Shown piece after piece: positions 12,680 through 49,902 of a DNA stretch of 64,000 nt. Source of the DNA: Gemmatimonadales bacterium (GTDB lineage Bacteria > Gemmatimonadota > Gemmatimonadetes > Gemmatimonadales > GWC2-71-9). Both the position numbers and the translations under genes were made by a program. The stretch lies in NCBI GenBank assembly GCA_041602035.1, contig JBFIHA010000001.1, forward strand, positions 74,941-138,940. The letters are read 5' to 3'. The notes under the pieces were generated by a model, which worked only from the letters and a program-made list of their open reading frames with translations, was not told where the DNA came from and made no database searches. Numbering within the stretch: position 1 is the first letter of the stretch; each line of letters opens with the position of its first letter.

Positions 12680-14626
12680 ATGCTTCGTGTAATGGCCATC
12701 GGCGTCACCGCCACGCTCCTTATCCGGGGAGCAACCGCGCAGGAAGCCCCGCCGCAGATTGTGTCGCGCACCGAATCTCGTGACGCATGGGGCGTGGACC
12801 GCCTTGCCGACCTGCGCTTCGGGCGCGTCGCGCTCGTGGCCGCACCCGAGGGCGTCCGGCTCGACGTCCGCCGGCTGCGCGAAACGCCGGTGCCGATCCC
12901 GCCGGTGAGCATGGAAGGCCGTGCCCCGACGGGCGCGGGCAACATCTTCGTCGTGAGTAATTTCGGTGAGAGCAACCGCACGCCGTTGGGCGGATACTTC
13001 GGCACCTTTCAGCGTGACCCGTCACGGGCCGAGGCACGTGTCGATCGCATGGCGGACGGGCGGCGCGCGCTTGAGCTCATCTGTCGGGTGGAGGGCACGG
13101 GGTTCTGCGGTCTCTGGATCCAACTCTACGACTTCGAAGCCGCACCCGAGGCACGACGCTATCTGGACGCCCGAGGGTTCTCTACACTGAGCTTCTGGAT
13201 TCGCGGGCGTGCCGGCGGTGAGCCGCTTCTCCTGAAAGCGGCCGACGCCGTGTGGGAGCAGCGGGAGGACGCCTTACCGGTCGGTGACGTGGCAGCGTTC
13301 CTTCCCACCGGCCGCGTAGACACGACATGGCAACAAGCGGTCATCCCCCTCGAACGCCTCCCGGTACGCTTGCGGCGTGAGGCGTTGGCGATGCTGGTAT
13401 TCGAAGCCACCGCGCCCGGCACCAGTACGATCGAGCTTGGGCCGGTGGCCCTGTCGGTCGCGCCCCGCGATCTGCCGTCACTTCCCGATCCGCAGCTGGC
13501 GGTGGAGCCGACCTCCGTCGGGCACAAGGCGACGTGGGTATGGAATACCGCCGAACTGCTGGCTGATTCGCTCAAGCGATCCACGATGCTCGCATTCCTG
13601 GAGCGGGAGGGGTTCGACCGCGTGTTTCTCCAGCTTCCCGGCGTGCCGGATGCGCCGAACGTCCCGGGGGAACTCGCGATCGACACGCCGACGATGCGAT
13701 CGCTGGTGGCGGACTTCACGCGACGGGGCATGCGCGTCTACGCGCTCGACGGGTATGCGCGGTATGCGCTTCCCGAGTTCCACGCGGGCGTCCTCGCCAC
13801 GATCGACCACGTCATTCGTTACAACGATGAGGTGTCCCCGCACGAGCAGTTCTTCGGTGTGCGGTACGATATCGAGCCGTATCTGCTGCCGGCGTTCCAC
13901 GGCTCGGGGAGGGCGACGCTGCTCCGGGGGCTGCTGGAACTGACCGCCGCATCGGTCGAGCGCGCACACGCGGCCGGCCTCGTCTACGGCGCGGACATCC
14001 CGTTCTGGTATGACGCTACATCCGACGACACGCCGGAGGCGGTCACAGTCGAGTACCGGGGGATTCGGCAGCCGGTGAGCGCGCACCTGATCGACTTGGT
14101 TGACGATGTGGCGATTATGGACTACCGCACCACGGCGTACGGTGCCGACGGCACGATCCGCCACGCCTCGGGCGAGCTCGCGTACGCGTCACGGCGCGGG
14201 AAGCCGGTGCTCATTGCGCTTGAGACCTTCGATCTCCCCGACGAGGTGCTCCTGGAGGTGCACGGCGCGCCTCGGCGGGGCCTGCCGTCGCGCGCGTCTA
14301 CCCAAGCGGTGGTTGCCGTCGTGACCGCCGGAGATTCGCTGCTTGTCGTCTACGTGAAGGCTGCCGCGGGAGCCGACACGGCGGTTGCCGATTGGCTCGC
14401 CGAACGGGGACTGGACGCCATGGATGTCTGGTGGTGGCCGGTGAGCCGACGGGTCGAGGTCCCCGCCGCCAAACTCACGTTCGCGCGGCATGATCTGCGC
14501 CACCTCAACGACGTGGTGCGCGGAACCGCGGCGGAGCTTCGGCGCTACCCGTCCTTCGCCGGCTTCGCCCTGCATTCCGCTGAGAGCTACATGGCGCTGG
14601 TTGAGCGCGGGGCGCCGCCGCGGTAG
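12680..14626 (+). CDS. secreted protein with an N-terminal beta-sandwich (CBM/CIA30-like) domain and a C-terminal glycoside-hydrolase-like TIM-barrel domain (tentative)
   Basis: Signal peptide. The N-terminal region (GLWIQLYDF, STLSFWIRG) looks like a carbohydrate-binding module. The C-terminal region has the alternating pattern of a TIM barrel (RVFLQLP, VYALDG, IPFWYD, AIMDYR). Confidence 0.75.
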   Translation: MLRVMAIGVTATLLIRGATAQEAPPQIVSRTESRDAWGVDRLADLRFGRVALVAAPEGVRLDVRRLRETPVPIPPVSMEGRAPTGAGNIFVVSNFGESNRTPLGGYFGTFQRDPSRAEARVDRMADGRRALELICRVEGTGFCGLWIQLYDFEAAPEARRYLDARGFSTLSFWIRGRAGGEPLLLKAADAVWEQREDALPVGDVAAFLPTGRVDTTWQQAVIPLERLPVRLRREALAMLVFEATAPGTSTIELGPVALSVAPRDLPSLPDPQLAVEPTSVGHKATWVWNTAELLADSLKRSTMLAFLEREGFDRVFLQLPGVPDAPNVPGELAIDTPTMRSLVADFTRRGMRVYALDGYARYALPEFHAGVLATIDHVIRYNDEVSPHEQFFGVRYDIEPYLLPAFHGSGRATLLRGLLELTAASVERAHAAGLVYGADIPFWYDATSDDTPEAVTVEYRGIRQPVSAHLIDLVDDVAIMDYRTTAYGADGTIRHASGELAYASRRGKPVLIALETFDLPDEVLLEVHGAPRRGLPSRASTQAVVAVVTAGDSLLVVYVKAAAGADTAVADWLAERGLDAMDVWWWPVSRRVEVPAAKLTFARHDLRHLNDVVRGTAAELRRYPSFAGFALHSAESYMALVERGAPPR

Positions 14627-14735
14627 CCGAGATCAGCGGCGCTTTGCAAGCGGCGGGTCGACGCGTCATGTTGGAGGCGAGCGATCCGATCCGACGACAT
14701 CGGCAGCACGTCCCACCCACGCGAGGGCATCAGGA

Positions 14736-15638
14736 ATGAGTGCGGAGCAGTTCGTCAAACGGGCACGCAGCCTCTCGAGACCGTACCGTGTCACGACCGG
14801 GAAGAAGTTCCGGCTCACCGACTACGATCCCGCCGACACGGGAACACTCGGCTCGGGGGACAAGCCCCAGGCCAAGAAGGCCCTCCGAGCCGGGGTGAAG
14901 GCAATGGCGGAGCTGCAGGAGATGCTGTACGCCCAGGACCGATGGGCCGTGCTCCTGGTGTTCCAGGCGATGGACGCCGCGGGGAAGGACAGCGCCATCA
15001 AGCATGTGATGTCGGGCGTGAACCCGCAGGGCTGCCAGGTGTTCTCGTTCAAGGCGCCCAGCAAGGAAGAGCTGGATCACGACTATCTGTGGCGCTGCCT
15101 CCAGCGACTCCCAGAGCGGGGACGGATAGGGATCTTCAACCGCTCGTACTATGAGGAAGTACTGGTGGTGCGCGTGCATCCCGCGATCCTCGAAGGGCAG
15201 AACCTCCCATCCCAGCTCGTGACGGACCGCATCTGGAGACAACGGTTCGAGGACATCCGGAACGTCGAGCAGTATCTCACCCACAACGGCGTCGTGATCC
15301 GGAAGTTCTTCCTCCACGTGTCGAAGGAAGAACAGCAGGACCGGTTTCTCGATCGCATCGACCGGCCCGAGAAGAACTGGAAGTTCTCCGCCGCCGACCT
15401 CGCGGAGCGCGCGCACTGGGACGACTACATGCACGCGTACGAGGACATGATTCGTCACACGGCCACGAAGGAGGCGCCGTGGTACGTGGTCCCCGCGGAC
15501 CGGAAGTGGTTCACGCGTATGGTGGTGGCGTCGGCGATCGTCGACGCGCTTGCCTCGCTCGACCTGCATTTTCCGACAGTCGACAGAGCCGGCAGGCGGA
15601 AACTGGCCAAGCTGCGGAAGGAGTTGGAGGGCGAATAG
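14736..15638 (+). CDS. polyphosphate kinase 2 (PPK2) family phosphotransferase
   Basis: QAMDAAGKD Walker-A-like motif, DYLWR and IFNRSYYEEVLVVRVH motifs. Confidence 0.92.
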   Translation: MSAEQFVKRARSLSRPYRVTTGKKFRLTDYDPADTGTLGSGDKPQAKKALRAGVKAMAELQEMLYAQDRWAVLLVFQAMDAAGKDSAIKHVMSGVNPQGCQVFSFKAPSKEELDHDYLWRCLQRLPERGRIGIFNRSYYEEVLVVRVHPAILEGQNLPSQLVTDRIWRQRFEDIRNVEQYLTHNGVVIRKFFLHVSKEEQQDRFLDRIDRPEKNWKFSAADLAERAHWDDYMHAYEDMIRHTATKEAPWYVVPADRKWFTRMVVASAIVDALASLDLHFPTVDRAGRRKLAKLRKELEGE

Positions 15639-15642
15639 ACCC

Positions 15643-15703
15643 GGGAACTGGGAACGGGAAACGGGAAGAGGAGATTGACCGATCCGACGATCTGACGATC
15701 CCC
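15643..15703 (+). repeat. composite element: GGGAAC(N) 6-7-nt repeat (4 GGG tracts) plus 3 units of CGATCYNN
   Basis: GGGAACTGGGAACGGGAAACGGG at 15643..15665. cgatccga cgatctga cgatcccc at 15680..15703. It starts 5 nt after the PPK2 stop. Confidence 0.8.
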
Positions 15704-15783
15704 AAGGCCGTGAGTGGGGCGGCTAGCGATCCGCTCGACGCCACGCCACCCTACCCGGCCATGATTCCCGTCCGCTCCCACCA

Positions 15784-17184
15784 GTGACGCCGCTCCTCGC
15801 GGCCATCCTCGGCTACCTCGCGGTCCAGCTCGGGATCGGCGTCTGGGCGTCGCGGCGAGTCCACACGGAAGACGACTATCTGGTGGCGGGACGTCGGCTG
15901 GGGTACCCGCTCGCCGTGCTTTCCATCTTCGCCACGTGGTTCGGGGCGGAGACGTGCATTGGCGCGGCGGGCGAGATCTATCGCGAGGGGATCTCGTTCA
16001 CGTCGGCCGAGCCGTTCGGCTACGGGCTGTGTCTCATCTTCATGGGGCTCGTGTTTGCGGTGCCGCTGTGGCGCCGCAAGCTGACGACGCTGCCCGACCT
16101 GTTCCGGCAGCGGTTCTCGGTGCCGGTGGAGCGGCTGGCAGCACTGATTCTCATTCCGGGGTCCATTCTCTGGGCCGCGGCCCAGGTGCGAGCCTTCGGT
16201 CACGTGCTGTCCAGCGCGTCCTCGCTGGACGTGGATTTCGCCATCACGGCGGCGGCGGCGTTCGTGATCCTCTACACCGCGGTCGGCGGACTGCTGGCCG
16301 ATGCGGTGACCGACCTGGTGCAGGGAATCCTGCTCGTGCTGGGTCTCCTGATCGTCGGCATCGCCGCCGTGGCCCATCTCGGCGGGGTGCAGGACGCCGC
16401 GGCCGCCGTGGCGAACGGATTGGGGTCCGGCATCCCCCACGGCGCCACGCGCGCCTCGCTGCTTGATACCGTCGAAGCCTGGGCGATCCCTGTGTGCGGC
16501 TCCGTGGTGGCGGTGGAGCTGGTCGGGCGCGTGATTGCCGCCCGCACGCCGGAGATCGCGAGCCGCTCCAGCGTCGTCGCGGGCGTGATGTACGTCGCCG
16601 TAGGACTCATTCCCGTGTTCGTCGGTCTCACCGGGGCCGCCATCGTTCCCGACTTGGCCGATGCGGAACAGCTCCTGCCGATGGTGGCACAGACCCTCCT
16701 GCCGGCAGTTCTGTACGCCCTGTTTGCCGGCGCGCTCATTTCGGCGATTCTCTCGACGGTGGACAGCACACTGCTGGTCGGCTCAGGGCTGTTGTCGCAC
16801 AACCTCATCGTGCCCCTGTTGCGGTACCCGACCGAGCGCCAGCGCGTCCTGATCGCGCGGCTCGGCGTGGGCGGGTTCGGGATCCTGGCCTATGTGCTGG
16901 CCCTCCGGGCCGAGGGCGTGTACGCGCTGGTGGAGCAGGCGTCGGCGTTCGGCAGCGCGGGCACGCTGGTGATCGTGAGCTTCGGGTTGTTCACCCGGAT
17001 CGGCGGGGCGACCACCGCGGCGGCGACCCTGCTCGCGGGGGTAGGAAGCTATCTGGCGGCCAGCATTGGCGGCCTCCCGCATCCGTTTCTGACATCCCTC
17101 GCCGCGGCACTCGGGACGTACGGCGGCGGCGCGGTGCTCGAGGCGGTGGCGCGGCGAGCAGCCGTGGGTGTCGACCAACCGTAG
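15784..17184 (+). CDS. sodium:solute symporter (SSS) family transporter
   Basis: DYLVAGRRLG and ATWFGAET signatures. About 13 TM segments. GTG start. Confidence 0.9.
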   Translation: MTPLLAAILGYLAVQLGIGVWASRRVHTEDDYLVAGRRLGYPLAVLSIFATWFGAETCIGAAGEIYREGISFTSAEPFGYGLCLIFMGLVFAVPLWRRKLTTLPDLFRQRFSVPVERLAALILIPGSILWAAAQVRAFGHVLSSASSLDVDFAITAAAAFVILYTAVGGLLADAVTDLVQGILLVLGLLIVGIAAVAHLGGVQDAAAAVANGLGSGIPHGATRASLLDTVEAWAIPVCGSVVAVELVGRVIAARTPEIASRSSVVAGVMYVAVGLIPVFVGLTGAAIVPDLADAEQLLPMVAQTLLPAVLYALFAGALISAILSTVDSTLLVGSGLLSHNLIVPLLRYPTERQRVLIARLGVGGFGILAYVLALRAEGVYALVEQASAFGSAGTLVIVSFGLFTRIGGATTAAATLLAGVGSYLAASIGGLPHPFLTSLAAALGTYGGGAVLEAVARRAAVGVDQP

Positions 17185-17257
17185 CAGAACGACACGGGGC
17201 AGTCGTCCGGACCCGCCCCTCTCTCGTGTCGACTCGCTCCACGCTGGCTATACCGCC

Positions 17258-17350
17258 TTAGAAGTGGCCATCCGACAGCGTCTTCAGAAACGCGACGATG
17301 GCGCGCTCGTTCTCCGGGGAGATGAACTCGCCTGAGATCCCCGTGAAACA
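17258..17350 (-). pseudogene. possible remnant of the C-terminal tail of a cytochrome c peroxidase/c-type cytochrome gene
   Basis: The last ~29 codons read FTGISGEFISPENERAIVAFLKTLSDGHF. This resembles the LSxxExxALVAFLKTL tail of di-haem peroxidases. The upstream in-frame sequence is Arg/Ala-rich and non-coding-like, with no CxxCH. Confidence 0.35.
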
Positions 17351-17558
17351 CACCGTTGCGGCGGCGGGACAGAAAGCGGATTGACGCCGTCGGTTTTGCC
17401 GGAGTGGCGGGCCGATGGCACGGTCCGGCACCGACCAGGCCCGGATCTCGTGGAACCGGGCGTTCGTCGAGACCAGATGGCGTGGCCCTTTCCCACCCGG
17501 GTCACCCGCTGCACGTTTAGGCCTCGCCCGATCAGGCGACCAGGACCCGGAGGATGCG

Positions 17559-19100
17559 ATGAGACGTCGACGTGTGCTCTCGAGCCTCGCGATCTGCCTG
17601 CTGGCCATCGCGGCAGTGCCCGCGGCGGCGCAAGGGCCGCCGAGCGAGACGCCGCGAAACGCCAACACGGCCGGCAAGGAGGCGGACCTCCTGCCCGACG
17701 AGCCGGTCGTGACCCAGCATACGGCACGCATCAACGGACAAACGGTGCGCTACACGGCCGAGGCCGGCTGGCTACCGATCCGGGACGAGGGCAAGCTCAC
17801 GGCCAAGATGTTCTACATCGCCTACACCCGGGACGGCGTGACCGATCTGAGCAGTCGGCCGCTCGTGTTCTCGTTCAACGGCGGGCCGGGCACTGCGTCG
17901 GTCTGGATGCATATGGGCTACACGGGCCCTCGCCGCGTGGTCTACGACGAGGATGGGTTTGCGCTCCGTCCCCCCGGCGGGCTGGAAGCCAACCCGCATT
18001 CGATTCTGGACGCGGCGGATATCGTCTACGTCGACCCGGTCGCGACGGGATTCAGCCGCATGGTGGAGGGTGAAGACCTCCACAAGTACCATGGCACGCT
18101 CAGCGACGTGCAGTCCGTAGCGGAGTTCATCCGGCTCTACATCCTGCGGAAGAACCGCTGGACGTCTCCCAAGTTCCTGATCGGCGAGAGCTACGGCACC
18201 ACGCGCGCGTCAGGCCTCGCTGGCCACCTGGTGCGCGCACACCAGATCTACCTGAACGGCATCATCCTCGTCTCGATGACGGGGCTGGACGTGGATCAGG
18301 GTGACGACATCTCCTACGCCACGGCGCTGCCCCACCTCGCGGCCACGGCCTGGTACCATCGGCAGCTGCCCGCCGATCTTCAGGCCCGACCGCTGCGGGC
18401 GCTGCTCGACGACGTGGAACAGTTCGCGATGAGCGAGTATCTGGGGGTGCTCGTGCAGGGCGATCGGCTGGCCGACTCCGCCCGTGACGCCATGGCCGAC
18501 CGCGTGGCCCGCTACACGGGGCTCACCACGGAGTACGTGGTCTCGACGAACCTCCGCATCAGCTCCCGGCGATTCTGGAAGGAGCTGCTTCGCGACCAAC
18601 GCCTTACGGTGGGACGCCTGGACAGCCGGTACCTCGGTGTGGACGTGGACGCCGCGGGCGAAAACCCGGAGTACGACCCCGCAATGGCGGATTGGAACGG
18701 ACCCTTTGCCGATGCCGTGAACCGCTACCTCAGGGAGGAGTTGCGCTACAACCCGGATTTGGAGTACAACGTGTGGGGGAATGTGCGGCCGTGGAACCGC
18801 GATCAGTCGGCGAACGTCGGGGAGATGCTACGGCAGGCGATGCGCAACAACCCGTACCTCAAGGTACTGATCCAGGGCGGCTACTACGATGCCGCCACCG
18901 ACTACTTCAGCGCCGTGTACACGATCTCGCACCTTCAGCCTGGTGGCGAGTTCCGCGATCGGTTCCGCTTCGCCTGGTACGAGAGCGGGCATATGATGTA
19001 CCTGCGGAAGCCCGACCTGGCAAATGCCAACAACGACCTCCGGAGCTTCATTCGGTGGTCCATGGAAGGTGTGCCCGATTACCCGAGGCGGGCGCGGTAG
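17559..19100 (+). CDS. S10 family serine carboxypeptidase, secreted
   Basis: FNGGPGTAS and GESYGT catalytic serine motifs. Signal peptide ending AAAQ. Confidence 0.9.
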   Translation: MRRRRVLSSLAICLLAIAAVPAAAQGPPSETPRNANTAGKEADLLPDEPVVTQHTARINGQTVRYTAEAGWLPIRDEGKLTAKMFYIAYTRDGVTDLSSRPLVFSFNGGPGTASVWMHMGYTGPRRVVYDEDGFALRPPGGLEANPHSILDAADIVYVDPVATGFSRMVEGEDLHKYHGTLSDVQSVAEFIRLYILRKNRWTSPKFLIGESYGTTRASGLAGHLVRAHQIYLNGIILVSMTGLDVDQGDDISYATALPHLAATAWYHRQLPADLQARPLRALLDDVEQFAMSEYLGVLVQGDRLADSARDAMADRVARYTGLTTEYVVSTNLRISSRRFWKELLRDQRLTVGRLDSRYLGVDVDAAGENPEYDPAMADWNGPFADAVNRYLREELRYNPDLEYNVWGNVRPWNRDQSANVGEMLRQAMRNNPYLKVLIQGGYYDAATDYFSAVYTISHLQPGGEFRDRFRFAWYESGHMMYLRKPDLANANNDLRSFIRWSMEGVPDYPRRAR

Positions 19101-19173
19101 GCGCCTTCGCGATCACGAGGTGGAGAGCCCGGTGGTCGGCGGCCGGTCAAGCCAATAGGTTAGGAGCACGAGC

Positions 19174-20181
19174 ATGGAACGATCGTCACTCGTCAACAGA
19201 ATGCGGGAGGACCCTCCTGTGTCGGCTGAACGTTCAACCACCGCGTCCGGCAGTCTCGACCGCCGCACCTTCGTGCTCTCGGCGCTCGCCGTGCTCCCCG
19301 TGGCGTGTCAGCGGAATCCGAGACCCCTTTCTGCGGACGCGTCCGGCATGACCGCGTCGCTGTTCCAGATCTCGCTGGCCGAGTGGTCGCTGCACCGGAC
19401 GCTTTGGGCCGGGCAGATGAGCAACCTCGATTTCCCGGTTGTGGCGCGCACGGACTATGGGCTGGACGGTGTGGAGTACGTGAACTCCTTCTTCAAGGAC
19501 AAGGCGCAGGATCGTCAGTATCTGGCTGACCTCAAGCAGCGAGCCGACGATCACGGCGTTCGAAGCCTCCTCATTATGTGCGACGGCGAAGGGGCGCTCG
19601 GGGATCTCGACAGCGCGGCCCGCACGCAGGCGGTTGAGAACCACCGTCGGTGGGTGGACGCGGCGCAGTTCCTGGGGTGCCACTCGATCCGGGTCAACGC
19701 GCAATCGACCGGTTCCCGGGAGGAACAGCGCGACCTCGCGGCCGATGGACTGCGGCGCCTCACTGAATTCGCGGCCACTCGTGACATCAACGTGATCGTC
19801 GAGAACCACGGCGGTCTGTCGTCGGACGGCGGGTGGCTCGCGAGCGTGATGCGTACCGTCAACCACCCGCGGTGCGGCACGCTGCCGGATTTCGGCAACT
19901 TCCGGATCGGGGAAGACCAGTGGTACGACCGGTACCAGGGGGTAGCCGAGCTGATGCCCTTTGCCAAGGCGGTGAGCGCCAAGTCGCACGACTTTGACGA
20001 TCAGGGAAACGAGACCGAGACCGACTACGTTCGCATGATGCGGATCGTGCTCCACGCGGGATACCGGGGGTACGTGGGGATCGAGTACGAGGGCGATCGG
20101 CTCAGCGAGCCTGACGGCATTCGCGCCACGCTTGCCCTGCTCGAGCGGACCCGCGAGCAGTTGAGCGAAGACCTGCAGTAG
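19174..20181 (+). CDS. sugar phosphate isomerase/epimerase (xylose-isomerase-like TIM barrel), TAT-exported
   Basis: Twin-arginine motif LDRRTFVL. Family motifs VIVENHGG and GYVGIEYEG. Confidence 0.9.
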
Positions 20182-20288
20182 GCATTATGATGGGTGGGCG
20201 GGGCCCGATGGGCTCCGCCTGGCAGACCCGAACCGGCAACCCATACATTCGCCGCGTCTCCTCCCCCGCGGCCCAACGACGAGTCACG

Positions 20289-21329
20289 ATGCACCCTACG
20301 CAGGACATCGCCAGGAAGCTGGCTGCGCTCCGGCGCTTGGGATTCCAGCGGGAGGACGCGCCCCCGGTCGTCACCGAATCCACTCGCGTGGGCCGCCGCA
20401 GCCACGTGGTGACGGCGAGCCGGCCAGCCATGGGGACGCTGGTCTCGGTGTCCACGCTGGCGTCGTCCGCTGCCCGGGCCGAGGAGGCGATCGGGCGGGC
20501 CATGGAGGAGATGGACCGCCTGATCGGGATTTTCAGCCGCTATGAGCACGATTCGGCGATCACCGTGTTGAACGAGGTCGGTCGGCTCGACGGGTCTCCA
20601 CCGGAGCTCACAACGGTGGTCGACGGCTCTCGCGCCTACCACGCGTTGAGTCGCGGGGCATTCGACGTTTCCATCGCGCCGGTGCTCGACCTCGTCGTTT
20701 CCGCTCCGAACGGGATGCCGGCGATAGGCGAACTACGGGATGCGCTGGACTTGGTGGGGACGGAGGGCATCGTCCTGGAGGGGCGCCGAGTGAACTTTGC
20801 GCGGCCCGGCATGCGGATCACGCTCGATGGCATCGCGAAGGGCTTCATTGTCGATGCCGTTGCCGACGTACTGCGGCACCACCGGATCCGCAACTACCTG
20901 ATCAATGCTGGGGGCGACATCCGCACGGCGGGACGGAAACCGGGGCGACGGCCCTGGACCGTGGCGGTGCAGGACCCCGCAAAGGACGGCCGCTATCCTG
21001 ATACGATTCACCTTTCGGACGCCGCTGTCGCGACGTCGGGGAGCTACGAGCGATACTTCGACCGTGACCGACTGCGTCATCACATCGTTGACGGTAGCAC
21101 GGGCCAGTCGCCCGACGAGTGCGCTGGCGTGTCGGTGACGGCGCCCACCGCCATGGCGGCCGACGCGCTGTCGACGGCAGTATTCGTGATGGGACCCTCG
21201 GCCGGCGTCGCGTTCGTCGACAGCCTGCCGGGGTGCGAGTGTATGATCATCGATCGGGAGGGAAAGCCGCGCCGATCCCAGGGGTGGAAGAGCGCCGGCT
21301 CTGTGACCAGAGACGAGGTGGAGGCGTGA
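20289..21329 (+). CDS. apbE: FAD:protein FMN transferase (ApbE family), no detectable signal peptide
   Basis: MGTLVSV, DGIAKGF, INAGGDI and ATSGSYERYF motifs. Neither possible start (20187 or 20289) gives a hydrophobic N-terminal segment. Confidence 0.9.
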   Translation: MHPTQDIARKLAALRRLGFQREDAPPVVTESTRVGRRSHVVTASRPAMGTLVSVSTLASSAARAEEAIGRAMEEMDRLIGIFSRYEHDSAITVLNEVGRLDGSPPELTTVVDGSRAYHALSRGAFDVSIAPVLDLVVSAPNGMPAIGELRDALDLVGTEGIVLEGRRVNFARPGMRITLDGIAKGFIVDAVADVLRHHRIRNYLINAGGDIRTAGRKPGRRPWTVAVQDPAKDGRYPDTIHLSDAAVATSGSYERYFDRDRLRHHIVDGSTGQSPDECAGVSVTAPTAMAADALSTAVFVMGPSAGVAFVDSLPGCECMIIDREGKPRRSQGWKSAGSVTRDEVEA

Positions 21330-21868
21330 TGCGTGACGTCATGAAAGCGGGGAGCGAGGCGATGAAGGGGTACACCTCATTTCAGATGGCGATGCTCGTG
21401 CTGCTCAGAATGTTCATCGGGTGGCACTTCCTGTACGAGGGCCTCGCCAAGCTGGGGAACCCCTACTGGACGTCGGCGGGATATCTGGCCGAATCGAAGT
21501 GGTGGTTCTCCGGGATCTTCACCGCCATCGCGGCGAATCCGACGGTGCTCACGATCGTGGACTATGCCAACGCATGGGGCCTCCTGCTCATCGGCCTCGG
21601 GCTCATGCTTGGCATCTTCACGCGCAGCGCGACGATCGCCGGCCTCGTGCTGCTCTTCCTGTACTACCTCGCGGCCCCGCCGTTCGTCGGCTTGACCTAC
21701 GGCATGCCCACCGAAGGCAGCTATCTGGTGGTCAACAAGGTGCTCATCGAGCTGGCGGCCCTGGCGGTCCTGCTCGCGTTTCCGACGGGCAAGCTGTTCG
21801 GGCTCGACCGACTCCTTCCCTGGAATCGTCAATCCGATAGCCTGGCGCTCGGGCAGACCGGAGCCTGA
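21329..21868 (+). CDS. DoxX/DoxD-family membrane protein
   Basis: Four TM helices and the LRMFIGWHFLYEGLAKL motif. The ATG overlaps the ApbE stop (TGATG). Confidence 0.85.
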   Translation: MRDVMKAGSEAMKGYTSFQMAMLVLLRMFIGWHFLYEGLAKLGNPYWTSAGYLAESKWWFSGIFTAIAANPTVLTIVDYANAWGLLLIGLGLMLGIFTRSATIAGLVLLFLYYLAAPPFVGLTYGMPTEGSYLVVNKVLIELAALAVLLAFPTGKLFGLDRLLPWNRQSDSLALGQTGA

Positions 21869-21883
21869 GGAGAGAGAGAGATC

Positions 21884-23473
21884 ATGACCGACCAACACAC
21901 GACACCCGACAAGCCGCAGGCCACCGACCGTTGGGAGCCGACCCGCCGCGGCGTGCTCAAGGCATTGGTCTCGCTGCCATTCGTGGGGGCGTTTGCGTAC
22001 AACTACCTGAGGAAGCGGGCGGCCGACGACACCAAGAAACGGGCGATCCTGGAGGAGTTGGGCGTGACCGAAGGGCCGGCGTTCATCCCCGAGGCGATCT
22101 CCAAGCCGCCCGGGGAGCGGATCCGGCTCGGGATCATCGGGTTCGGCGGGGAGGGCGAGTCGCTGGTGCGTCACGCCGGCTTCGCGCATCCGGACTGGGT
22201 GGATGAGCAGCGGAAGAACGCCGCGGAGAACCCCGCGAACAAGGCGCTCGAGATCTACCTGACCCAAGAGGACCTGAACGTCGCCATCACCGCGGTATGC
22301 GACGTGTTCGACGTCCGGGCGGATCGTGGCGTCGCGGCGTCGCAGGTGGATGTCCGTCCGGGGGGTGGTGGCGCCAACCCGCCGGCCAAGCGCTACCGCC
22401 ACTATGCCGACCTGCTGCAAAGCGGTGACGTGGACGGGGTGATCATCGCCACGCCCGACCACTGGCACTCGCTCATGACCACGGCGGCCGTCGCCGAAGG
22501 CGTGCATGTCTACTGCGAGAAGTGCCTGACGCGTACGGAGGAGGAGGCGCGCACCGTCTACGATGCGGTGAAGCCGTCCGACATCGTGTTCCAGCTGGGA
22601 CACCAGAATCGCCAGTCCGAGGCGCACAACAAGGCACGTGAGGTGATCGACGCCAACATCCTCGGGCCGATCACGCTGGTGGAGGGAACGACCAACCGGA
22701 ACACCCCGTGGGGCGCGTGGGTGTGGGACATACACGAGGAAGGCAACCCGCAGACGATCGACTGGGAGCTGTTCGAGGGTCCGGCGCCCAATAAGGTGCC
22801 GTTCTCGCTAGAGCGGTTCTTCCGGTGGCGCTGCTGGTTCGACTATGGGACCGGCCTCTCCGGCGATCTGCTCTCGCACGAGTACGACGGCGTGAATCAG
22901 ATTCTGCAGGTGGGGATCCCGCAGTCCTGCGTCGCGTCCGGGGGCATCTACTACTTCAAGGACGGTCGAGACGTGCCGGACGTGTTCCAGGCCGTCTACG
23001 AGTACCCGGACCGCGACCTCACCTTCGTGTACAGCGCGACGCTGGCCAACGGCAACTATCGCGGGCTCGCGTTCATGGGTCACGACGCCACCATGCGAGT
23101 GAGCGGGTCCCTCACGGTGATGGCCGATTCGAACTCCACGCGTTACAAGGACAAGATCGAGAGCGGGGTCATCGATCCGTCCCGGACGATGTTCACCTAT
23201 CGACCGGGCTTCAAGGGTATCGATGCCGTCACGTCGGCCACCGAGGAGTACTTCGTGAGCCGCGGTCTGCTGTACACGTACCGCGGCGGCCGACGCGTGT
23301 CGGCCTACCACCTGCTAATCGGCGAGTGGTTGGACGTGATCCGCAATGGTGGTGAGACGAGCTGCAATATCGACCGCGCGTTCGAGGAAGCCATCACGTG
23401 CCACATGGCCACCCGCTCGTTCAAGGAAGGCCGGAAGGTCACGTGGGATCCGGTGCGGCGCAGAATTGTGTGA
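21884..23473 (+). CDS. Gfo/Idh/MocA family oxidoreductase, TAT-exported
   Basis: Twin-arginine TRRGVLKAL. Rossmann IRLGIIGFGGEG. ATPDHWH and YCEK motifs. A C-terminal DAVTSAT sequence lies at 23222..23242. Confidence 0.92.
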   Translation: MTDQHTTPDKPQATDRWEPTRRGVLKALVSLPFVGAFAYNYLRKRAADDTKKRAILEELGVTEGPAFIPEAISKPPGERIRLGIIGFGGEGESLVRHAGFAHPDWVDEQRKNAAENPANKALEIYLTQEDLNVAITAVCDVFDVRADRGVAASQVDVRPGGGGANPPAKRYRHYADLLQSGDVDGVIIATPDHWHSLMTTAAVAEGVHVYCEKCLTRTEEEARTVYDAVKPSDIVFQLGHQNRQSEAHNKAREVIDANILGPITLVEGTTNRNTPWGAWVWDIHEEGNPQTIDWELFEGPAPNKVPFSLERFFRWRCWFDYGTGLSGDLLSHEYDGVNQILQVGIPQSCVASGGIYYFKDGRDVPDVFQAVYEYPDRDLTFVYSATLANGNYRGLAFMGHDATMRVSGSLTVMADSNSTRYKDKIESGVIDPSRTMFTYRPGFKGIDAVTSATEEYFVSRGLLYTYRGGRRVSAYHLLIGEWLDVIRNGGETSCNIDRAFEEAITCHMATRSFKEGRKVTWDPVRRRIV

Positions 23474-23476
23474 CGA

Positions 23477-23574
23477 TAGGCGGTAAGGCGGTTAGGCGGG
23501 TGGGCGGGTGTACCGCCTAGCCGCCTAACTGCTCAACCGCTCAACCACCTACCCGCTCAACCGCCTACCCGCCC
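23477..23574. repeat. inverted array of octamer repeats: 4 forward units (TRGGCGGK) and about 8 reverse-complement units (CCGCYNAN)
   Basis: Forward units lie at 23477..23508 and reverse units at 23513..23574. 23487..23499 pairs with 23513..23525 (13 bp including one G-U). 23537..23549 is the exact reverse complement of 797..809. Confidence 0.85.
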
Positions 23575-23587
23575 AGGAGCAGCGTCC

Positions 23588-24838
<1,251 letters not shown>

Positions 24839-24841
24839 CCC

Positions 24842-26140
24842 ATGGGACACGCACCGAAGCAGCGGGCGCGGAGGAAGGCGGAGACCGCAGGGACGGCCCG
24901 ACGGCTGGGAGTGGGGATGATCGGTGGCGGGTTCGTGGCGCGGTTTCACATCCGCTCGTTCGTCAGCGTTCGCCAGGCGGACATCCGGGGTGTGGTCAGC
25001 CGGCGCGATGGGACGGCAGAAGAGGCGGTCGCCCTCGTGCGCCAGCTCGGCGTGGGCGACGCGAAGGTCTTCGATTCGGTCACGGCCATGGTGGCGGATC
25101 CCGACATCGACGCCGTGTGGATCTGCGCGCCCAACTTTGCGCGCATCGAGGTGATGGAGGAGATCGTCGAGGCGATCGAGACGGGCAAGGGCACGCTGGT
25201 CGGCGTGGCGTGTGAGAAGCCGCTGGGACGCAACGTGGCCGAGGCTCGTCGCATGCTGGACTTGGTGGAGCGCGCGGGACTGCTGGACGGATACCTCGAG
25301 AATCAGCTGTTCTCGCCCGGGGTCGTGCGTGGCAGGGACGTTCTCTGGGCCCGCGGTGCGGCACTCACGGGACCGCCATACCTGGCCCGGGCGGCTGAGG
25401 AGCACAGCGGTCCGCACAGCCCCTGGTTCTGGGAGGGTGAGCTCCAGGGCGGCGGGGTGCTCAACGACATGATGTGTCACTCGGTGGAGGTGGCCCGCTT
25501 TCTGTTGACGGCGCCCGGGGCCTCGCGGGACACCCTGACGCCCGTCAGGGTCACCGCCCACACGTCCTGTCTCAAGTGGCAGCACCCGGACTATGCGGCG
25601 CTGCTCGCCGAGCAGAGCGGCGGGAAGCTGGACTACCTGACCCGACCGTCCGAGGACTTCGCCCGAGCGTTGGTCGAGTACCGCGACGACACGGGGAGCA
25701 CGCGGGTCGTCGAGGCCACCACCTCCTGGTGTTTCGTGGGCGCGGGCCTCCGGCTCAGCATGGAGGTGCTCGGTCCGGAGTATTCGCTGTCGGTGAACTC
25801 GCTCGATGCCGGGCCGAAGGTCTTTTTCAGTCGGAAGGTGACCGGCGAGGCCGGCGAGGACATCGTCGAGAAGCAGAACGCCGAAATGGGCCTCATGCCG
25901 ATCGTGAGTGACGAGGAGAGTGAATACGGGTACGTGGGCGAGAACCGGCACATGGTTCAGGCGTTCCTCGCCGGGCGTCGTCCGGCGGAGACCTTTGCCG
26001 ACGGCGTCAACGTGACCGAGTTGCTCATGGCCGCGTACATGAGTGCCGAGCAGGGCAAGACCGTACCGTTCCCGCCGCCGGGCCTCGAGGCGTTCGTGCC
26101 CGCCGTGGCCAGGGGCGCCTGGAACCCGAGGACATCATGA
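24842..26140 (+). CDS. Gfo/Idh/MocA family oxidoreductase (cytoplasmic)
   Basis: LGVGMIGGGFVARFH Rossmann motif, ACEKPLGRN motif and no signal peptide. Confidence 0.92.
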   Translation: MGHAPKQRARRKAETAGTARRLGVGMIGGGFVARFHIRSFVSVRQADIRGVVSRRDGTAEEAVALVRQLGVGDAKVFDSVTAMVADPDIDAVWICAPNFARIEVMEEIVEAIETGKGTLVGVACEKPLGRNVAEARRMLDLVERAGLLDGYLENQLFSPGVVRGRDVLWARGAALTGPPYLARAAEEHSGPHSPWFWEGELQGGGVLNDMMCHSVEVARFLLTAPGASRDTLTPVRVTAHTSCLKWQHPDYAALLAEQSGGKLDYLTRPSEDFARALVEYRDDTGSTRVVEATTSWCFVGAGLRLSMEVLGPEYSLSVNSLDAGPKVFFSRKVTGEAGEDIVEKQNAEMGLMPIVSDEESEYGYVGENRHMVQAFLAGRRPAETFADGVNVTELLMAAYMSAEQGKTVPFPPPGLEAFVPAVARGAWNPRTS

Positions 26141-26778
26141 ATCCACGTCGTATATGCGGCCTCGTGCTCGCACTGATCGTTGTGGCCGGCGAGCCGGTCA
26201 TCGCGCAGGATCGCGAAGGCTTCGAGCAGATCCTGGCGCAGCGCAACGGGCGGTACTCGAAGCACGGCTGGAATCACTACGGTCCCGGGTACTTCGATCT
26301 CGATCCCCGGACGGGAGTCCTCACCTCGCATGGGGGCATGGGACTGTTCTGGTACTCGGCGAAGGAGTACGGCGATTTCGTCCTGGACCTCGAGTTCATG
26401 TGCGCGACCAGCGAGACCAACTCCGGCATCTTTCTGCGGGTGCCGGGCGTGCCCACCAGCGACGACTACATCTACCGCAGTTTCGAGATCCAGATCAACG
26501 ATGCGGGGGAAGGGGTTTACCAGACCGCTGCGGCGTACGACGCGGAGGCTCCGACCATGCGTGCCTCGAGGCCGGCCGGGGAATGGAACCGCTATCGGAT
26601 CACGGTTCAGGGTGACCGCATCATGGTGGAGCTGAATGGCACGCAGGTGCTCGACTGGCGAGCGGAGCCGCGCGGCAAGGTTGTGGACTTCGCCCCCCGC
26701 GGCTACATCGGGCTGCAGAACCACGATGATCGGAGCCCGGTGTATTTCCGCAACATCTACGTGAAAGAGTTGCCGTAG
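26137..26778 (+). CDS. DUF1080 (3-keto-disaccharide hydrolase family) secreted protein
   Basis: Signal peptide. SGIFLR, FEIQIND, GYIGLQNH and FRNIYVKEL motifs. ATGA overlap with the upstream gene. Confidence 0.9.
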   Translation: MNPRRICGLVLALIVVAGEPVIAQDREGFEQILAQRNGRYSKHGWNHYGPGYFDLDPRTGVLTSHGGMGLFWYSAKEYGDFVLDLEFMCATSETNSGIFLRVPGVPTSDDYIYRSFEIQINDAGEGVYQTAAAYDAEAPTMRASRPAGEWNRYRITVQGDRIMVELNGTQVLDWRAEPRGKVVDFAPRGYIGLQNHDDRSPVYFRNIYVKELP

Positions 26779-26870
26779 AGTACCACTCGTGCGGCACGGT
26801 CGCGCCGAGGGTTGAACCCTCGCGTCACGACCGGTACCATAGAGCATCCCCGCATCTCCCGGAGGACCCC

Positions 26871-27629
26871 ATGCTCCGCATCTTCACGAGCGTCGCGTGC
26901 GCCTTGCTGCTCTTGGCACCCCCGGCTGCCGCGCAGGAGGCCGAAGCACCGGCGCCCGGGCTGGTCTACGTGGCGTACTTTCAGGTGGCCTACGCAGACC
27001 TCGACGATTGGATTGGCGACTACTACCAGTACTCCGTGCCCGTCCTGCAGGAACTCCAGGATGAAGGGGTGATCACCGGCTGGGGGGTGTGGCAACACCA
27101 AACCGGGGTGGAGTACAACTGGCGCTTCGCCGTGCGGGCGCCGGAGTGGTCGCATTTCGAGGGCTTCTGGCGTGAGTATCTGGGACGCCTCCAAGAGCGT
27201 GCGCCCGAAGTACTGGCCCGAGACAACCGGATGATCCAGGCCCATTTCGACGAAGTGTGGAACATCGACGAGGTGCATGTTCCGGAGGGACTCGACGCCC
27301 TGTACCTGTACGATTCCCGATTCCAGATCAGCTTTGCCTATCTCGAGGAGTGGAACCAGCGCTGGCGTGAAAGCGTGGCCCCGGTCCTCAACCAGTCAAT
27401 GGAGGACGGGATCCTCGATGGCTGGGTTGTCCAGAGCCACAACACGGGCGGTCGCTACAATTGGAAGGTGCTGTACCTGTTCCAGGAATGGGACGATATG
27501 GACGACCACTTCGGGCGGGTCATGGCGGAGCTCACCTCCGACGCCTACGGGTGGGAGCAGTTTTCCAGCATGATCGACGCGCACGACGATGTTATCTGGA
27601 CGGCCGTGCCGCCCACGGGAGGAAACTAG
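26871..27629 (+). CDS. secreted hypothetical protein with an internal ~105-aa duplication
   Basis: Signal peptide ending AAAQ. The two halves align: PVLQELQDEGVITGWGVWQHQTGVEYNW versus PVLNQSMEDGILDGWVVQSHNTGGRYNW. Confidence 0.75.
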   Translation: MLRIFTSVACALLLLAPPAAAQEAEAPAPGLVYVAYFQVAYADLDDWIGDYYQYSVPVLQELQDEGVITGWGVWQHQTGVEYNWRFAVRAPEWSHFEGFWREYLGRLQERAPEVLARDNRMIQAHFDEVWNIDEVHVPEGLDALYLYDSRFQISFAYLEEWNQRWRESVAPVLNQSMEDGILDGWVVQSHNTGGRYNWKVLYLFQEWDDMDDHFGRVMAELTSDAYGWEQFSSMIDAHDDVIWTAVPPTGGN

Positions 27630-27635
27630 GTCGAT

Positions 27636-28451
27636 CTAGCGCGGCACCCGTACCGATAACCCCAGCCCGACAAACCAGTCGTCGGCGTCGCCTGCCCAGC
27701 GGACGCCGCCGCTCGTGTCGAGCTGGACATTGGTGGCGAGCTGGAGTGTGAACCCGGCGTCGAACAGGTGAGATGACGCGACGCCGTCGCTGAGACCTAC
27801 CGAGCCGAACCCCTCAACAAACATGCCCACGCGCTCGACGAGCCCGACGCCAACCGCGAGGGTGTACGGCGCCGCCGCCTCGGTGGCCAGCGTCCCGTCG
27901 CCACGATCTACGGACGAGGCTTCCACGCCCACGTTATAGCCCACGCCGACGCGTTCACTCAGCACGTGGGAGACCGCGATTCTGATCCCGGGGTCAGCCC
28001 GTTCGGCGCGGACGCCCTCCGTCCCGATCGGAACGAGCACCTTCCCGAGCAGCGCGACGGACGGTGTCAACCCGTTGCCCTCGGCCACCTGGACCTTGAA
28101 GCCGAGATCCAGGCTGCCGATGCCGCTCTCGGAGGACGTCGACGCCATGCGCGTCACCGAGGTGCGGACCCACCCCGCGAATCCGATGCGGGCCTCGACT
28201 CGGGGGGCCACACCGATGCGGAGCAGCGCAGGAGCGATGGTCAGCATCTCGGTAGAGTCGGCACCGGCCAAGAGGTTCCCCAGCTCGAGCTGGACATAGC
28301 CGGGTGGCACGATCGCCGTCGACTCCGTTTGGTCCGGGCGGTCGGTGACCAGGGGGCCGGGCGTCTGAGCGGTCGACCACGACGGGAGCCCGACCGTGAA
28401 CCCGAAGACCAAGGCCAAGCCGCGTGCGATCGCCACAGTTCGTTGCAGCAT
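27636..28451 (-). CDS. outer-membrane beta-barrel transporter (MetA/phenol-degradation-like family)
   Basis: Signal peptide ending STAQ. TDRPDQTEST motif. Alternating beta-strand pattern ending in an aromatic/basic C-terminus. I took the start at MLQRT. Confidence 0.8.
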   Translation of the reverse strand: MLQRTVAIARGLALVFGFTVGLPSWSTAQTPGPLVTDRPDQTESTAIVPPGYVQLELGNLLAGADSTEMLTIAPALLRIGVAPRVEARIGFAGWVRTSVTRMASTSSESGIGSLDLGFKVQVAEGNGLTPSVALLGKVLVPIGTEGVRAERADPGIRIAVSHVLSERVGVGYNVGVEASSVDRGDGTLATEAAAPYTLAVGVGLVERVGMFVEGFGSVGLSDGVASSHLFDAGFTLQLATNVQLDTSGGVRWAGDADDWFVGLGLSVRVPR

Positions 28452-35065: not shown

Positions 35066-35138
35066 CCTGAACTCAGAACGACACGAGCGGCCGGGCGCTC
35101 GCCTTACGGGTGCCCGGCTTCGTGCGGAGGGAAGCATC

Positions 35139-42503: not shown

Positions 42504-42540
42504 CCCGATCGGCTGTCTCAGCCGGTCGGGGCGTTTCTTG
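42504..42540 (+). terminator. intrinsic terminator of the DEAD-box helicase gene, embedded in the 3' end of the convergent topoisomerase IB gene
   Basis: 12-bp stem with one mismatch (42504..42515 / 42519..42530) and a 3-nt loop, then GCGTTTCTTG. Confidence 0.55.
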
Positions 42541-49787: not shown

Positions 49788-49902
49788 GGGGACCGGGAAG
49801 TGGGGAGCGTTGGGCGTTCGTGGTCGGGGGCGTCTTGCGCGGCGGACCGGCGCTCACAATGTTTGCGCGTTCCCCTCACGTCCTCTCTGGAGGTGCATCC
49901 GT

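Follow-up and report, generated by a model that had tools for sequence, protein, structure and literature searches.

Which protein is served by an ApbE-type FAD:protein FMN transferase (FAD, flavin adenine dinucleotide; FMN, flavin mononucleotide) whose gene carries no recognisable export signal and lies immediately upstream of genes for a DoxX-family membrane protein and an oxidoreductase with a twin-arginine translocation (Tat) signal? The question is raised by a stretch of 64,000 nt from a Gemmatimonadales bacterium (contig JBFIHA010000001.1 of assembly GCA_041602035.1, positions 74,941 to 138,940 of the forward strand), referred to here as the window, with a G+C content of 64–70% and about 50 likely genes; families were assigned by a Pfam profile scan of 29 of its open reading frames (ORFs). 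The oxidoreductase, a member of the Gfo/Idh/MocA family at 21884–23473, is called GFO below, and a second such enzyme at 24842–26140 is called GFO2. Our answer, to which we attach a probability of roughly 0.6 on the strength of sequence comparisons, is that the locus encodes a membrane-bound, periplasm-facing sugar dehydrogenase:quinone oxidoreductase and a new class of ApbE substrate, in which FMN on threonine 453 (T453) of GFO would relay electrons from reduced nicotinamide adenine dinucleotide (phosphate) (NAD(P)H) to quinone at DoxX. The narrower proposition, that GFO is an ApbE target at T453, is judged likely. The features on which the argument depends are as follows.

20289..21329, + strand: ApbE FAD:protein FMN transferase, 346 aa (PF02424, E = 4.7e-69), predicted to be cytoplasmic
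20289..20420, + strand: decayed Tat signal peptide, the 44 N-terminal residues of ApbE (alignment to the nearest ApbE clade)
21329..21868, + strand: DoxX-family membrane protein, 179 aa (PF07681, 31.2 bits)
21884..23473, + strand: GFO, Gfo/Idh/MocA oxidoreductase, 529 aa (PF01408 and C-terminal GFO domains), predicted to be periplasmic and anchored
21944..22000, + strand: twin arginines R21 and R22 of GFO and the hydrophobic segment of residues 23–39 (conservation, hydrophobicity)
22139..22156, + strand: Rossmann motif G86-F-G88-G-E-G91 of GFO (conservation across 81 sequences)
23222..23242, + strand: candidate flavinylation motif D447-A-V-T-S-A-T453 of GFO, with the codon of the proposed FMN acceptor T453 at 23240–23242 (motif scan, conservation)
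23225..23257, + strand: low-confidence loop of GFO, residues 448–458 (AlphaFold, predicted local distance difference test (pLDDT) below 50)

The stop codon of ApbE (TGA, 21327–21329) shares one base with the start codon of DoxX (ATG, 21329–21331), giving TGATG, and a gap of 15 nt (21869–21883) separates the end of DoxX from the ATG of GFO at 21884. An earlier note on this DNA, made from the letters alone, had described this packing, and the coordinates bear it out; the family identities it had given to the three products were upheld by Pfam matches and by the conserved arginine pair of GFO. The same note had drawn attention to the heptapeptide DAVTSAT at 23222..23242 as the only such motif of the cluster. 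This, too, was confirmed: the motif corresponds to GFO residues 447–453, and a search of the whole window with the pattern D..[ST][GSA]A[ST] returned GFO as the one plausible gene. By our estimate, about 0.02 chance matches are expected in the ~1,100 residues of the three proteins.

Homologues of GFO were sampled both as aligned representatives of 50%-identity clusters and in a separate scan of one genome per species, which yielded 80 loci. The alignment of cluster representatives placed the motif in a subfamily-specific insertion that is missing from most GFO enzymes. In the scan, the insertion was present in 45 of the 80 loci (46 when the earlier locus L001 is included), and its carriers spanned at least five phyla, comprising Gemmatimonadota, Aminicenantes, Marinimicrobia, one gammaproteobacterial metagenome-assembled genome and many Bacteroidota (including Odoribacter laneus, Prevotella sp. 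10(H), Carboxylicivirga and Algoriphagus). All 45 DoxX-linked GFOs that span the stretch (37–72% identity; L040 was excluded, as its contig ends before the motif) read D-[AGT]-[VILY]-[TSA]-[SGT]-[AP]-[TS] at the aligned position. The strict motif pattern was found in 34 of them and a relaxed form, D..[STA][GST][AP][ST], in all 45, while either pattern occurred anywhere in just one of 35 control GFOs lacking the insertion. The family is large, with approximately 5,800 of 8,000 scored candidates (90%-identity clusters) matching the profile of loop-bearing GFOs at E ≤ 1e-20. Residue counts at each motif position among 41 relatives at 37–56% identity were as follows.

Position 447: D 41 (of 41)
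Position 448: A 29, G 10, T 2
Position 449: V 28, I 10
Position 450: T 23, S 14, A 4
Position 451: S 36, T 3, G 2
Position 452: A 38, P 3
Position 453: T 39, S 2

Conservation in orthologues, which the earlier note had proposed as a check, is therefore observed at this level of divergence, with D447 invariant, A452 nearly so, T453 replaced by Ser alone and position 451 confined to Ser, Thr or Gly. Close homologues (72–94% identity) retain the motif as well, but they also retain nearly all other residues. The published ApbE motif is D-x-x-[S/T]-G-A-[S/T] (PMC12052999). Its Asp1, [S/T]4, Ala6 and [S/T]7 have counterparts in D447, T450, A452 and T453, kept in 41/41, 37/41, 38/41 and 41/41 relatives, respectively, and the A/G and V/I found at the second and third positions match the usual preferences of the published motif. 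Fully canonical variants also occur in the family (DAVTGAT in L011; DAVSGAT in L065 and in two cluster representatives). In a model substrate, replacement of the Gly at position 5 by Ala left ~50% of flavinylation (PMC12052999).

Other potential targets in the window were considered. None of the known ApbE-substrate families was detected among the 29 ORFs scanned against Pfam. Three ORFs with an [ST]GA[ST] sequence (34965–35825, 49810–50472 and 53466–55958; one of them without a Pfam match, one a weak TM2 match and one a Ser/Thr kinase) were rejected, having no Asp at position 1. The xylose-isomerase-like TIM-barrel protein encoded upstream of ApbE was likewise rejected, because homologues do not keep the SGMT of its linker, and an alignment of 24 of them shows no conserved motif column. 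GFO is the only one of the cassette proteins with a conserved candidate flavinylation site.

A second flavinylation-like motif was seen in one subclade of Bacteroidota, within an extra insertion of 12 residues after the position of GFO residue 376 (nt ~23011). It is found in L011, L026, L027, L029–L031, L034, L035, L040, L042, L044 and L045, the named records being of Saprospiraceae, Cyclobacteriaceae/Algoriphagus, Roseivirgaceae, Flammeovirgaceae and Flavobacteriaceae. Its sequence is near-canonical in L042 (D-F-S-T-G-A-S-Q) and L011 (D-F-T-M-G-A-T-Q) and F-S-T-G-S-S-Q in others, and this insertion may be a second flavin site.

As to the enzyme that carries the motif, all three GFO profiles (PF01408, PF22725 and PF02894) exceeded their cut-offs. 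Residues G86 and G88 and the catalytic D192, H195, E212 and K213 are invariant, and G91 is conserved at 90% or above, in 81 sequences down to 28% identity; the E-K-P-type motif reads EKC in the window enzyme. The best NCBIfam match was the BT_2158_fam glycoside 3-dehydrogenase (NF058561), with 120 bits relative to a cut-off of 750 and residues 166–378 aligned, so that by profile score GFO is related to this family and yet not a member of it. An AlphaFold model built from the 81 diverse sequences reached a pLDDT of 88.6 and a predicted template-modelling score of 0.85; a model from only 22 sequences, all at 72% identity or above, had a pLDDT of 53 and was set aside. Foldseek returned many GFO structures with a probability of 1.0. 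Among solved structures, GFO comes closest in both sequence and fold to NAD-dependent sugar 3-dehydrogenases, including levoglucosan dehydrogenase, the Alistipes glucoside-3-dehydrogenase AL3 (8tdf), a glucuronide-3-dehydrogenase (8tdi) and DgpA. GFO is probably a sugar dehydrogenase, likely to act at the 3-position of a glycoside.

The N-terminus of GFO contains T-R-R-G-V-L-K-A-L followed by the hydrophobic residues 23–39, the pattern of a Tat signal, and R21 and R22 are conserved at 90% or above in alignments down to 28% identity. Close homologues have VFF or AFF where the window GFO has AFA (residues 36–38), and no A-x-A is conserved. Since, in addition, the AlphaFold model has a single long helix over residues 21–59, the N-terminus was read as a signal-anchor, which is probably uncleaved and would hold the enzyme to the membrane. 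Apart from the N-terminal 16 residues, just two segments of the model fell below a pLDDT of 50, residues 65–73 and residues 448–458, the latter containing the motif. Burial of the motif, raised by the earlier note as a potential objection, does not appear to apply to this model. The loop is highly conserved but could not be placed within an otherwise confident fold, and it looks flexible or in need of a partner or cofactor.

DoxX is the obligate partner of the loop-bearing GFOs. It adjoins GFO in 46 of 46 insertion-bearing loci and in none of the 35 other GFO loci; in nearly all cases it lies directly upstream, the exceptions being L020, where it is found ~1 kb upstream of GFO, and L037–L039 and L041, where it follows GFO directly. 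The window protein has approximately four hydrophobic helices, and its PF07681 match is weak, although above threshold (31.2 bits, cut-off 23.6). In-frame DoxX-GFO fusions of ~700 aa were identified in L115 (685–3283), in L121 (8996–11110) and in protein P0365, which argues for a physical association of the two proteins. The RR motif is retained at the fusion junction, after the DoxX helices, and this would put the GFO domain across the membrane from the DoxX C-terminus. The C-terminus of four-helix DoxX proteins is usually cytoplasmic, in which case the GFO domain would be periplasmic. The fusions resemble polytopic proteins whose targeting involves Sec as well as Tat.

The window ApbE covers the PF02424 profile at full length (positions 1–266 of 266) and scored 96 bits with NCBIfam PRK10461, under the equivalog cut-off of 498. 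It contains the ATSGSYE and DAL(S/A)T motifs, its FAD and Mg motifs are retained, and H265 aligns to the catalytic His257 of Vibrio cholerae ApbE (6nxi; His257Gly in entry 6nxj). Residues H264, H265, T249, S250, G251, Y253, D292, A293 and L294 are invariant among five ApbEs of the same signal-less type (group A, below), and the enzyme is predicted to be catalytically intact. The start at 20289 is favoured by homologues, which have a Met 6–8 residues before the conserved ARKLAAL. As the earlier note had stated, no hydrophobic signal segment is present from either possible start; no transmembrane-like segment was found, and neither was the lipobox or signal peptide that is typical of ApbEs located outside the cytoplasm. 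Cytoplasmic ApbEs are a known minority (PMC12052999).

The assignment to the cytoplasm was strengthened by a position-for-position remnant of a Tat signal. Almost no gaps are needed to align the ApbE N-terminus, IARKLAALRRLGFQRE, with the Tat signal found in the nearest ApbE clade, in which DRRSFLKLSGLLGLGLA..AEA matches IARKLAALxDLGFERV..TEA of the DoxX-linked ApbEs. Over the whole segment, DRRSFLKLSGLLGLGLAxAxxxPxxAEAVKF of the relatives corresponds to xxxIARKLAALxDLGFERVxxxPVxTEAVRV of the DoxX-linked clade, and the latter clade has lost RR pair, hydrophobic core and AEA cleavage site alike. On this alignment, the window ApbE is taken to derive from a Tat-exported ancestor and to have been relocated to the cytoplasm through decay of its signal.

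An ApbE-centred metagenome scan was conducted using an alignment of signal-less ApbEs as the query, and the 80 closest relatives were taken. We refer to signal-less ApbEs of the window type as group A and to the nearest clade with a Tat signal as group B. Within group A, DoxX follows ApbE in all 38 loci with downstream room (45–85% identity), GFO comes after DoxX wherever the contig continues, and a TIM-barrel gene is usually upstream. Locus L149 has the same type of N-terminus, and its contig stops 56 nt past ApbE. Neither DoxX nor GFO was found in any group B locus (41 of the 80 relatives, 45–50% identity), where the N-terminus, if present, is a canonical Tat signal and the neighbours are housekeeping genes (ribF, hflX, dnaB and ribosomal-protein genes). 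In L156 (5587–6669), for instance, ribF, for riboflavin kinase/FAD synthetase, lies ~1 kb 5′ of ApbE, with rpsF, rplI, hflX and dnaB close by, an arrangement that sensibly couples the making of FAD to its consumption.

Judged by these neighbourhoods, the window ApbE is dedicated to DoxX-GFO. The earlier note had allowed that ApbEs of related genomes might be tied to some other substrate; no such alternative came to light, with the signal-less clade followed by DoxX, and by GFO where the contig allows, at every locus with room, and with unrelated lipoprotein ApbEs recruited beside the same GFO clade and its sister. A cytoplasmic, competent ApbE that occurs solely beside a Tat passenger is what would be expected if the flavin were attached before export. 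The lipoprotein ApbEs of other lineages would act after export, and both routes would be possible if the loop is exposed.

The association of ApbE with GFO is not restricted to the window type. Of 49 DoxX-GFO loci, 7 have an ApbE within ~10 kb, against none of 35 control GFO loci, and a profile hidden Markov model built from 15 ApbE sequences detected no further ApbE in the GFO-centred loci. Four of the seven (L001, L003, L004 and L084) have an ApbE of the window's signal-less type. The other three differ. L042 (Bacteroidota) has a lipoprotein ApbE in the order ApbE-DoxX-GFO, as in the window; L019 (Marinimicrobia) has one on the opposite strand inside the cassette; and L013 (Prevotella sp. 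10(H)) reads DoxX-GFO-GFO-DUF1080-TIM-ApbE-TatC with a signal-less ApbE. In L013, this region (15109–17314) holds an ApbE unrelated to the window type and a tatC gene within ~350 nt after it.

A sister clade, mostly from Planctomycetota, consists of GFOs that have the insertion with a different loop sequence and a Tat signal and that lack DoxX. Its loop reads ..VTSPT..W..GKG, with [LM]-x-T-S-P-T-x-x-W in 19 of 22 cluster representatives. A lipoprotein ApbE lies within 3 kb in seven of eight distinct loci, in four arrangements: convergent with GFO and ending a MacB-type ABC operon (L165, L166, L169 and L173); in L168; in L170, with two tandem GFO paralogues; and divergent in L171/L172. The eighth, L167, has an A-A-P-S loop and no ApbE nearby. 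The Ser/Thr aligned with T453 is the one constant across the DoxX-linked and sister clades and was found in every sister sequence examined. Taken together, ApbE has been recruited repeatedly beside this GFO clade and its sister, in about eight arrangements and at least four phyla, whereas, by our estimate, a given gene has a ~1% chance of lying within 10 kb of an ApbE.

Several of the sister loci have features of their own. The operon of L165 (8550–14752), L166 (8482–15044), L169 (8466–14904) and L173 (9466–15694) is conserved on the minus strand, with lipoprotein ApbE as its last gene, and encodes a MacB-type ABC transporter (FtsX, ABC_tran), an HlyD-like adaptor and a ~600-aa protein of no assigned family, beside sdhCAB-like genes; it could serve flavin or FAD export for periplasmic flavinylation. 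In L170 (7001–11977), the tandem TSPT-loop GFOs are split by a Flavodoxin_2/FMN_red gene and followed by ApbE and two Beta_helix/NosD-like genes. L171 (6796–9392) and L172 (742–3338) have a GFO with a degenerate loop and a divergent lipoprotein ApbE beside a molybdopterin oxidoreductase operon.

In the window, the three genes belong to a longer run, from 19174 to 26778, in which all genes are on the + strand with short gaps or overlaps between them. Its remaining members are given below.

19174..20181, + strand: xylose-isomerase-like TIM-barrel protein (AP_endonuc_2, PF01261, E = 6.5e-29) with a Tat-type lipoprotein signal, predicted to be periplasmic
23588..24838, + strand: MFS transporter of the Nuc_H_symport/LacY-like type (PF03825, E = 2e-100), in the membrane
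24842..26140, + strand: GFO2, second Gfo/Idh/MocA enzyme, 432 aa (Pfam and NCBIfam matches), with no hydrophobic segment
26137..26778, + strand: DUF1080/3-keto-disaccharide hydrolase (PF06439, E = 2.7e-36) with a signal-like segment at residues 4–23

Homologues of the TIM-barrel protein (E ~ 1e-99 to 1e-183), with their RR signal conserved, sit 5′ of ApbE in most group A loci and are its usual upstream neighbour; the protein probably processes 3-keto-glycosides. The MFS gene has the same position in L082, L083 and L019, and its product presumably imports the (keto-)sugar. GFO2, which is kept in the cassettes of L082, L084 and L019, is predicted to be cytoplasmic because it has no signal, and is probably a keto-sugar reductase, while the Sec-type signal of the DUF1080 protein leads to a predicted periplasmic location. 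The arrangement DoxX-GFO-MFS-GFO2-TIM-DUF1080 recurs without ApbE in L082 and, in part, in L083 (Aminicenantes); the L084 cassette has no MFS gene and has ApbE in addition. A scan of 18800–27800 for promoters and terminators gave nothing above shuffle expectation.

The genes on the 5′ side, for a PPK2 polyphosphate kinase (14490–15638, +), a sodium:solute symporter (15784–17184, +) and a serine carboxypeptidase S10-like protein (17415–19100, +), are not conserved beside the cassette in other loci. Type IB topoisomerases are uncommon among bacteria. One is encoded in the window at 42518–43648 (− strand), with a eukaryotic-type Topoisom_I core and a bacterial Top1B N-terminal domain, and is unrelated to the present finding.

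From these observations we infer a covalent FMN on T453, flavinylation before export, a path from NAD(P)H through FMN to quinone, and the type of substrate. In the mechanism we propose, GFO would fold in the cytoplasm around tightly bound NAD(P), and the dedicated signal-less ApbE would move FMN from FAD onto T453 in the flexible DAVTSAT loop. Tat would then export the loaded enzyme, whose uncleaved RR helix would anchor it beside DoxX. In the periplasm, GFO would oxidise a sugar, with the hydride reducing the bound nicotinamide; the tethered flavin would take over the hydride and hand electrons to quinone at DoxX, so that NAD(P)+ is regenerated without a second sugar. The TIM-barrel and DUF1080 proteins would cleave the 3-keto-glycoside, the MFS transporter would import the product and cytoplasmic GFO2 would reduce it. 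The mechanism in its entirety is given even odds. The reading of GFO as a periplasmic enzyme flavinylated by ApbE is supported by the comparisons made, and no computational refutation test that was run went against it.

A number of observations do weigh against it. The canonical Gly5 is absent, with Ser451 in the window and Ser in 36 of the 41 relatives, and Pro occupies position 6 in GFOs beside a dedicated ApbE (DAVTTPT in L003, DAITSPT in L084) and throughout the sister clade (TSPT). The loop showed no similarity to FMN_bind or to any Pfam family, even at E values up to 10, and the conservation of T453 could have a structural cause, if this residue caps the N-terminus of a short helix (456–459). 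Of 25 DoxX-GFO loci whose contigs extend 5 kb or more in both directions, 22 have no ApbE nearby, so that a housekeeping ApbE elsewhere in the genome must be assumed for such loci. Bacteroidota normally encode ApbE for Nqr and Rnf. The earlier note had expected the motif to be conserved only where both ApbE and DoxX are neighbours. For ApbE this failed, as the motif tracks DoxX (46/46) and has ApbE near it in 7 of 49 loci. The sister clade gave a mixed picture, in which TSPT goes with ApbE and the AAPS loop of L167 goes without it, but L171 adjoins ApbE with only an HAVPS loop. Adjacency there does not follow the quality of the motif, which implies either a looser recognition than published or a link that does not run through the motif. 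The quinone site of DoxX is presumed from the family name alone, and the support for the proposal as a whole consists of the motif and of gene neighbourhoods.

The strict tracking of DoxX and the looser one of ApbE would be accounted for if the loop were a docking, quinone-site or substrate-binding element for DoxX, its likeness to the ApbE motif being a coincidence; NAD(P)H would then reduce quinone directly at the DoxX interface, and ApbE would act on an unlinked protein or as an FAD pyrophosphatase and FMN supplier, as does Ftp of Treponema pallidum. The Ser at position 5, the occasional Pro at position 6, the HAVPS loop beside an ApbE and the lack of similarity to known flavinylated domains all fit such an element. 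We nevertheless regard this explanation as unlikely, above all because the sister clade, which has no DoxX, retains the loop, its terminal Ser/Thr and an adjacent ApbE in four arrangements. It is also at odds with a whole clade of signal-less ApbEs that occurs solely upstream of DoxX-GFO, and with all seven motif positions fitting the preferences of ApbE. The independent recruitment of unrelated ApbEs would be difficult to account for unless the cassette itself encoded a target, and GFO is the sole cassette protein with a conserved candidate site. That there is no functional link at all, with ApbE adjacent by chance or operon drift and DAVTSAT an ordinary conserved loop, is very improbable: short motifs can turn up at random, and GFO paralogues are numerous in Planctomycetota genomes, but about eight ApbE-GFO arrangements in at least four phyla contrast with none at the 35 control loci.

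The sister clade bears differently on the question of what the flavin does, since a loop flavin that works without DoxX must use other partners. Near neighbours include a Planctomycete cytochrome-domain protein for L168 and sdhCAB for L165, L166, L169 and L173. We know of no demonstrated quinone site in a DoxX protein outside the archaeal DoxDA enzyme. GFO might accordingly be flavinylated with the flavin serving otherwise than as a quinone relay, be it as the primary sugar oxidant with a structural NAD(P), as donor to a soluble acceptor (cytochrome c) or O2, or in the reverse, quinol-driven reduction of a keto-sugar, and with DoxX as an anchor or assembly factor. This we consider improbable, as the invariant Rossmann motif and catalytic GFO residues speak for a catalytic NAD(P), and the obligate adjacency and fusions of DoxX exceed what anchoring would call for in an enzyme that has a membrane helix of its own. 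A flavinylated GFO passing electrons from NAD(P)H to quinone at DoxX remains the preferred reading.

ApbE flavinylation, Tat-exported GFOs, the 3-keto-glycoside cassette and DoxX are each known, and it is their combination that is new. The earlier note had remarked that Gfo/Idh/MocA enzymes are not known ApbE substrates, and full-text literature searches agreed, returning nothing that pairs ApbE with Gfo/Idh/MocA or a 3-dehydrogenase, or DoxX with Gfo/Idh/MocA. Judging by titles and term counts, none of the papers returned for DoxX with flavinylation, or for DoxX with glycoside, dehydrogenase and quinone, concerns such a module. Neither Gfo/Idh/MocA nor DoxX is mentioned in two large flavinylation surveys, DoxX being absent from the main text of PMC8238504. 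That survey (Méheust et al. 2021) noted that rarer ApbE substrates remain to be found, and it dropped ApbEs without a signal peptide, which made the window ApbE clade invisible to it. The substrates of orphan apbE genes described there (FMN_bind/NqrC/RnfG, DUF2271 and DUF3570; PMC8238504) resemble the window locus in having apbE beside a protein with a conserved loop motif of the [S/T]xA[S/T] type and a role in extracytoplasmic redox. The window carrier is, by contrast, a 529-aa NAD(P) Rossmann enzyme rather than a small flavin-only domain, with Ser in place of Gly5, and DoxX is not among the membrane systems found with orphan apbE (PMC8238504). In Klebsiella pneumoniae, a signal-less ApbE flavinylates a soluble fumarate reductase in the cytoplasm (PMC12052999), as proposed here for GFO; unlike GFO with its conserved Tat signal, that target has an FMN_bind-type domain and stays in the cytoplasm, and the window ApbE differs from the Klebsiella enzyme in its visible derivation from a Tat-exported ancestor.

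The remainder of the cassette recalls BT2156–BT2159 of Bacteroides thetaiotaomicron, in which 3-keto-trehalose is hydrolysed by the DUF1080 protein BT2157 and the 3-keto sugar presumably comes from BT2158, a GFO with a Tat signal (PMC8121099). For BT2158, re-oxidation of the bound NAD(P)H was proposed to use another, as yet unidentified, sugar as the acceptor (PMC8121099). Both cassettes combine a Tat-signal Gfo/Idh/MocA enzyme, a xylose-isomerase-like TIM barrel, a DUF1080 hydrolase and a second GFO. The window GFO aligns with BT2158-type enzymes over the N-terminal half only and has, in addition, the 448–458 loop and the N-terminal anchor; loop-less GFOs had DoxX or ApbE near them in none of 35 loci. 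Zymomonas mobilis glucose-fructose oxidoreductase (GFOR; 1ofg, 1h6a) belongs to the same fold family, is exported by Tat, its NADP tightly bound, and has to re-oxidise a cofactor that does not exchange; it does so by ping-pong with fructose as the second substrate, whereas a tethered flavin and a membrane partner are proposed here. LacABC and ThuAB glucoside 3-dehydrogenases similarly perform a periplasmic or membrane-linked C3 oxidation of glycosides that feeds the respiratory chain, but they belong to unrelated families (GMC/FAD with cytochrome c subunits) and involve no NAD(P), ApbE or DoxX. Members of the DoxX/DoxD family are small polytopic membrane proteins paired with a redox enzyme and thought to link it to the quinone pool. 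We take the DoxDA thiosulfate:quinone oxidoreductase of Acidianus and the DoxX-SseA-SodA complex of Mycobacterium tuberculosis to be the relevant comparators. In the literature searched, no DoxX is tied to sugar oxidation, GFO or flavinylation, and the window protein matches the family weakly (31 bits).

Extended to the whole family, the proposal is that loop-bearing, Tat-exported Gfo/Idh/MocA enzymes, both DoxX-linked (at least five phyla) and DoxX-less (Planctomycetota), form a large overlooked class of ApbE substrates, in which bound NAD(P) would be recycled by a swinging covalent FMN, with quinone at DoxX or other acceptors taking up its electrons, and that in cassettes of the Gemmatimonadota type the FMN would be attached before export by an ApbE evolved from a Tat-exported ancestor. 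We put this broader scheme forward tentatively, at a little under even odds. How NAD(P) is re-oxidised in the periplasmic Gfo/Idh/MocA enzymes of 3-keto-glycoside pathways in gut and soil bacteria is an unsolved question, to which a tethered flavin and DoxX would be a testable answer; the loop-bearing family is large and represented in Gemmatimonadota, Bacteroidota (including Odoribacter and Prevotella), Marinimicrobia, Aminicenantes and Planctomycetota. If the proposal is true, GFO would bring the first NAD-dependent enzyme fold to the targets of ApbE and would be the first Tat passenger tagged by ApbE, adding the motif variants T-S-A-T and T-S-P-T and a new membrane partner, and its ApbE would be a clear case of relocation to the cytoplasm through decay of a Tat signal. 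DoxX would have its first defined role in carbohydrate oxidation, and the extracytoplasmic oxidation of glycosides would become an energy-conserving respiratory reaction.

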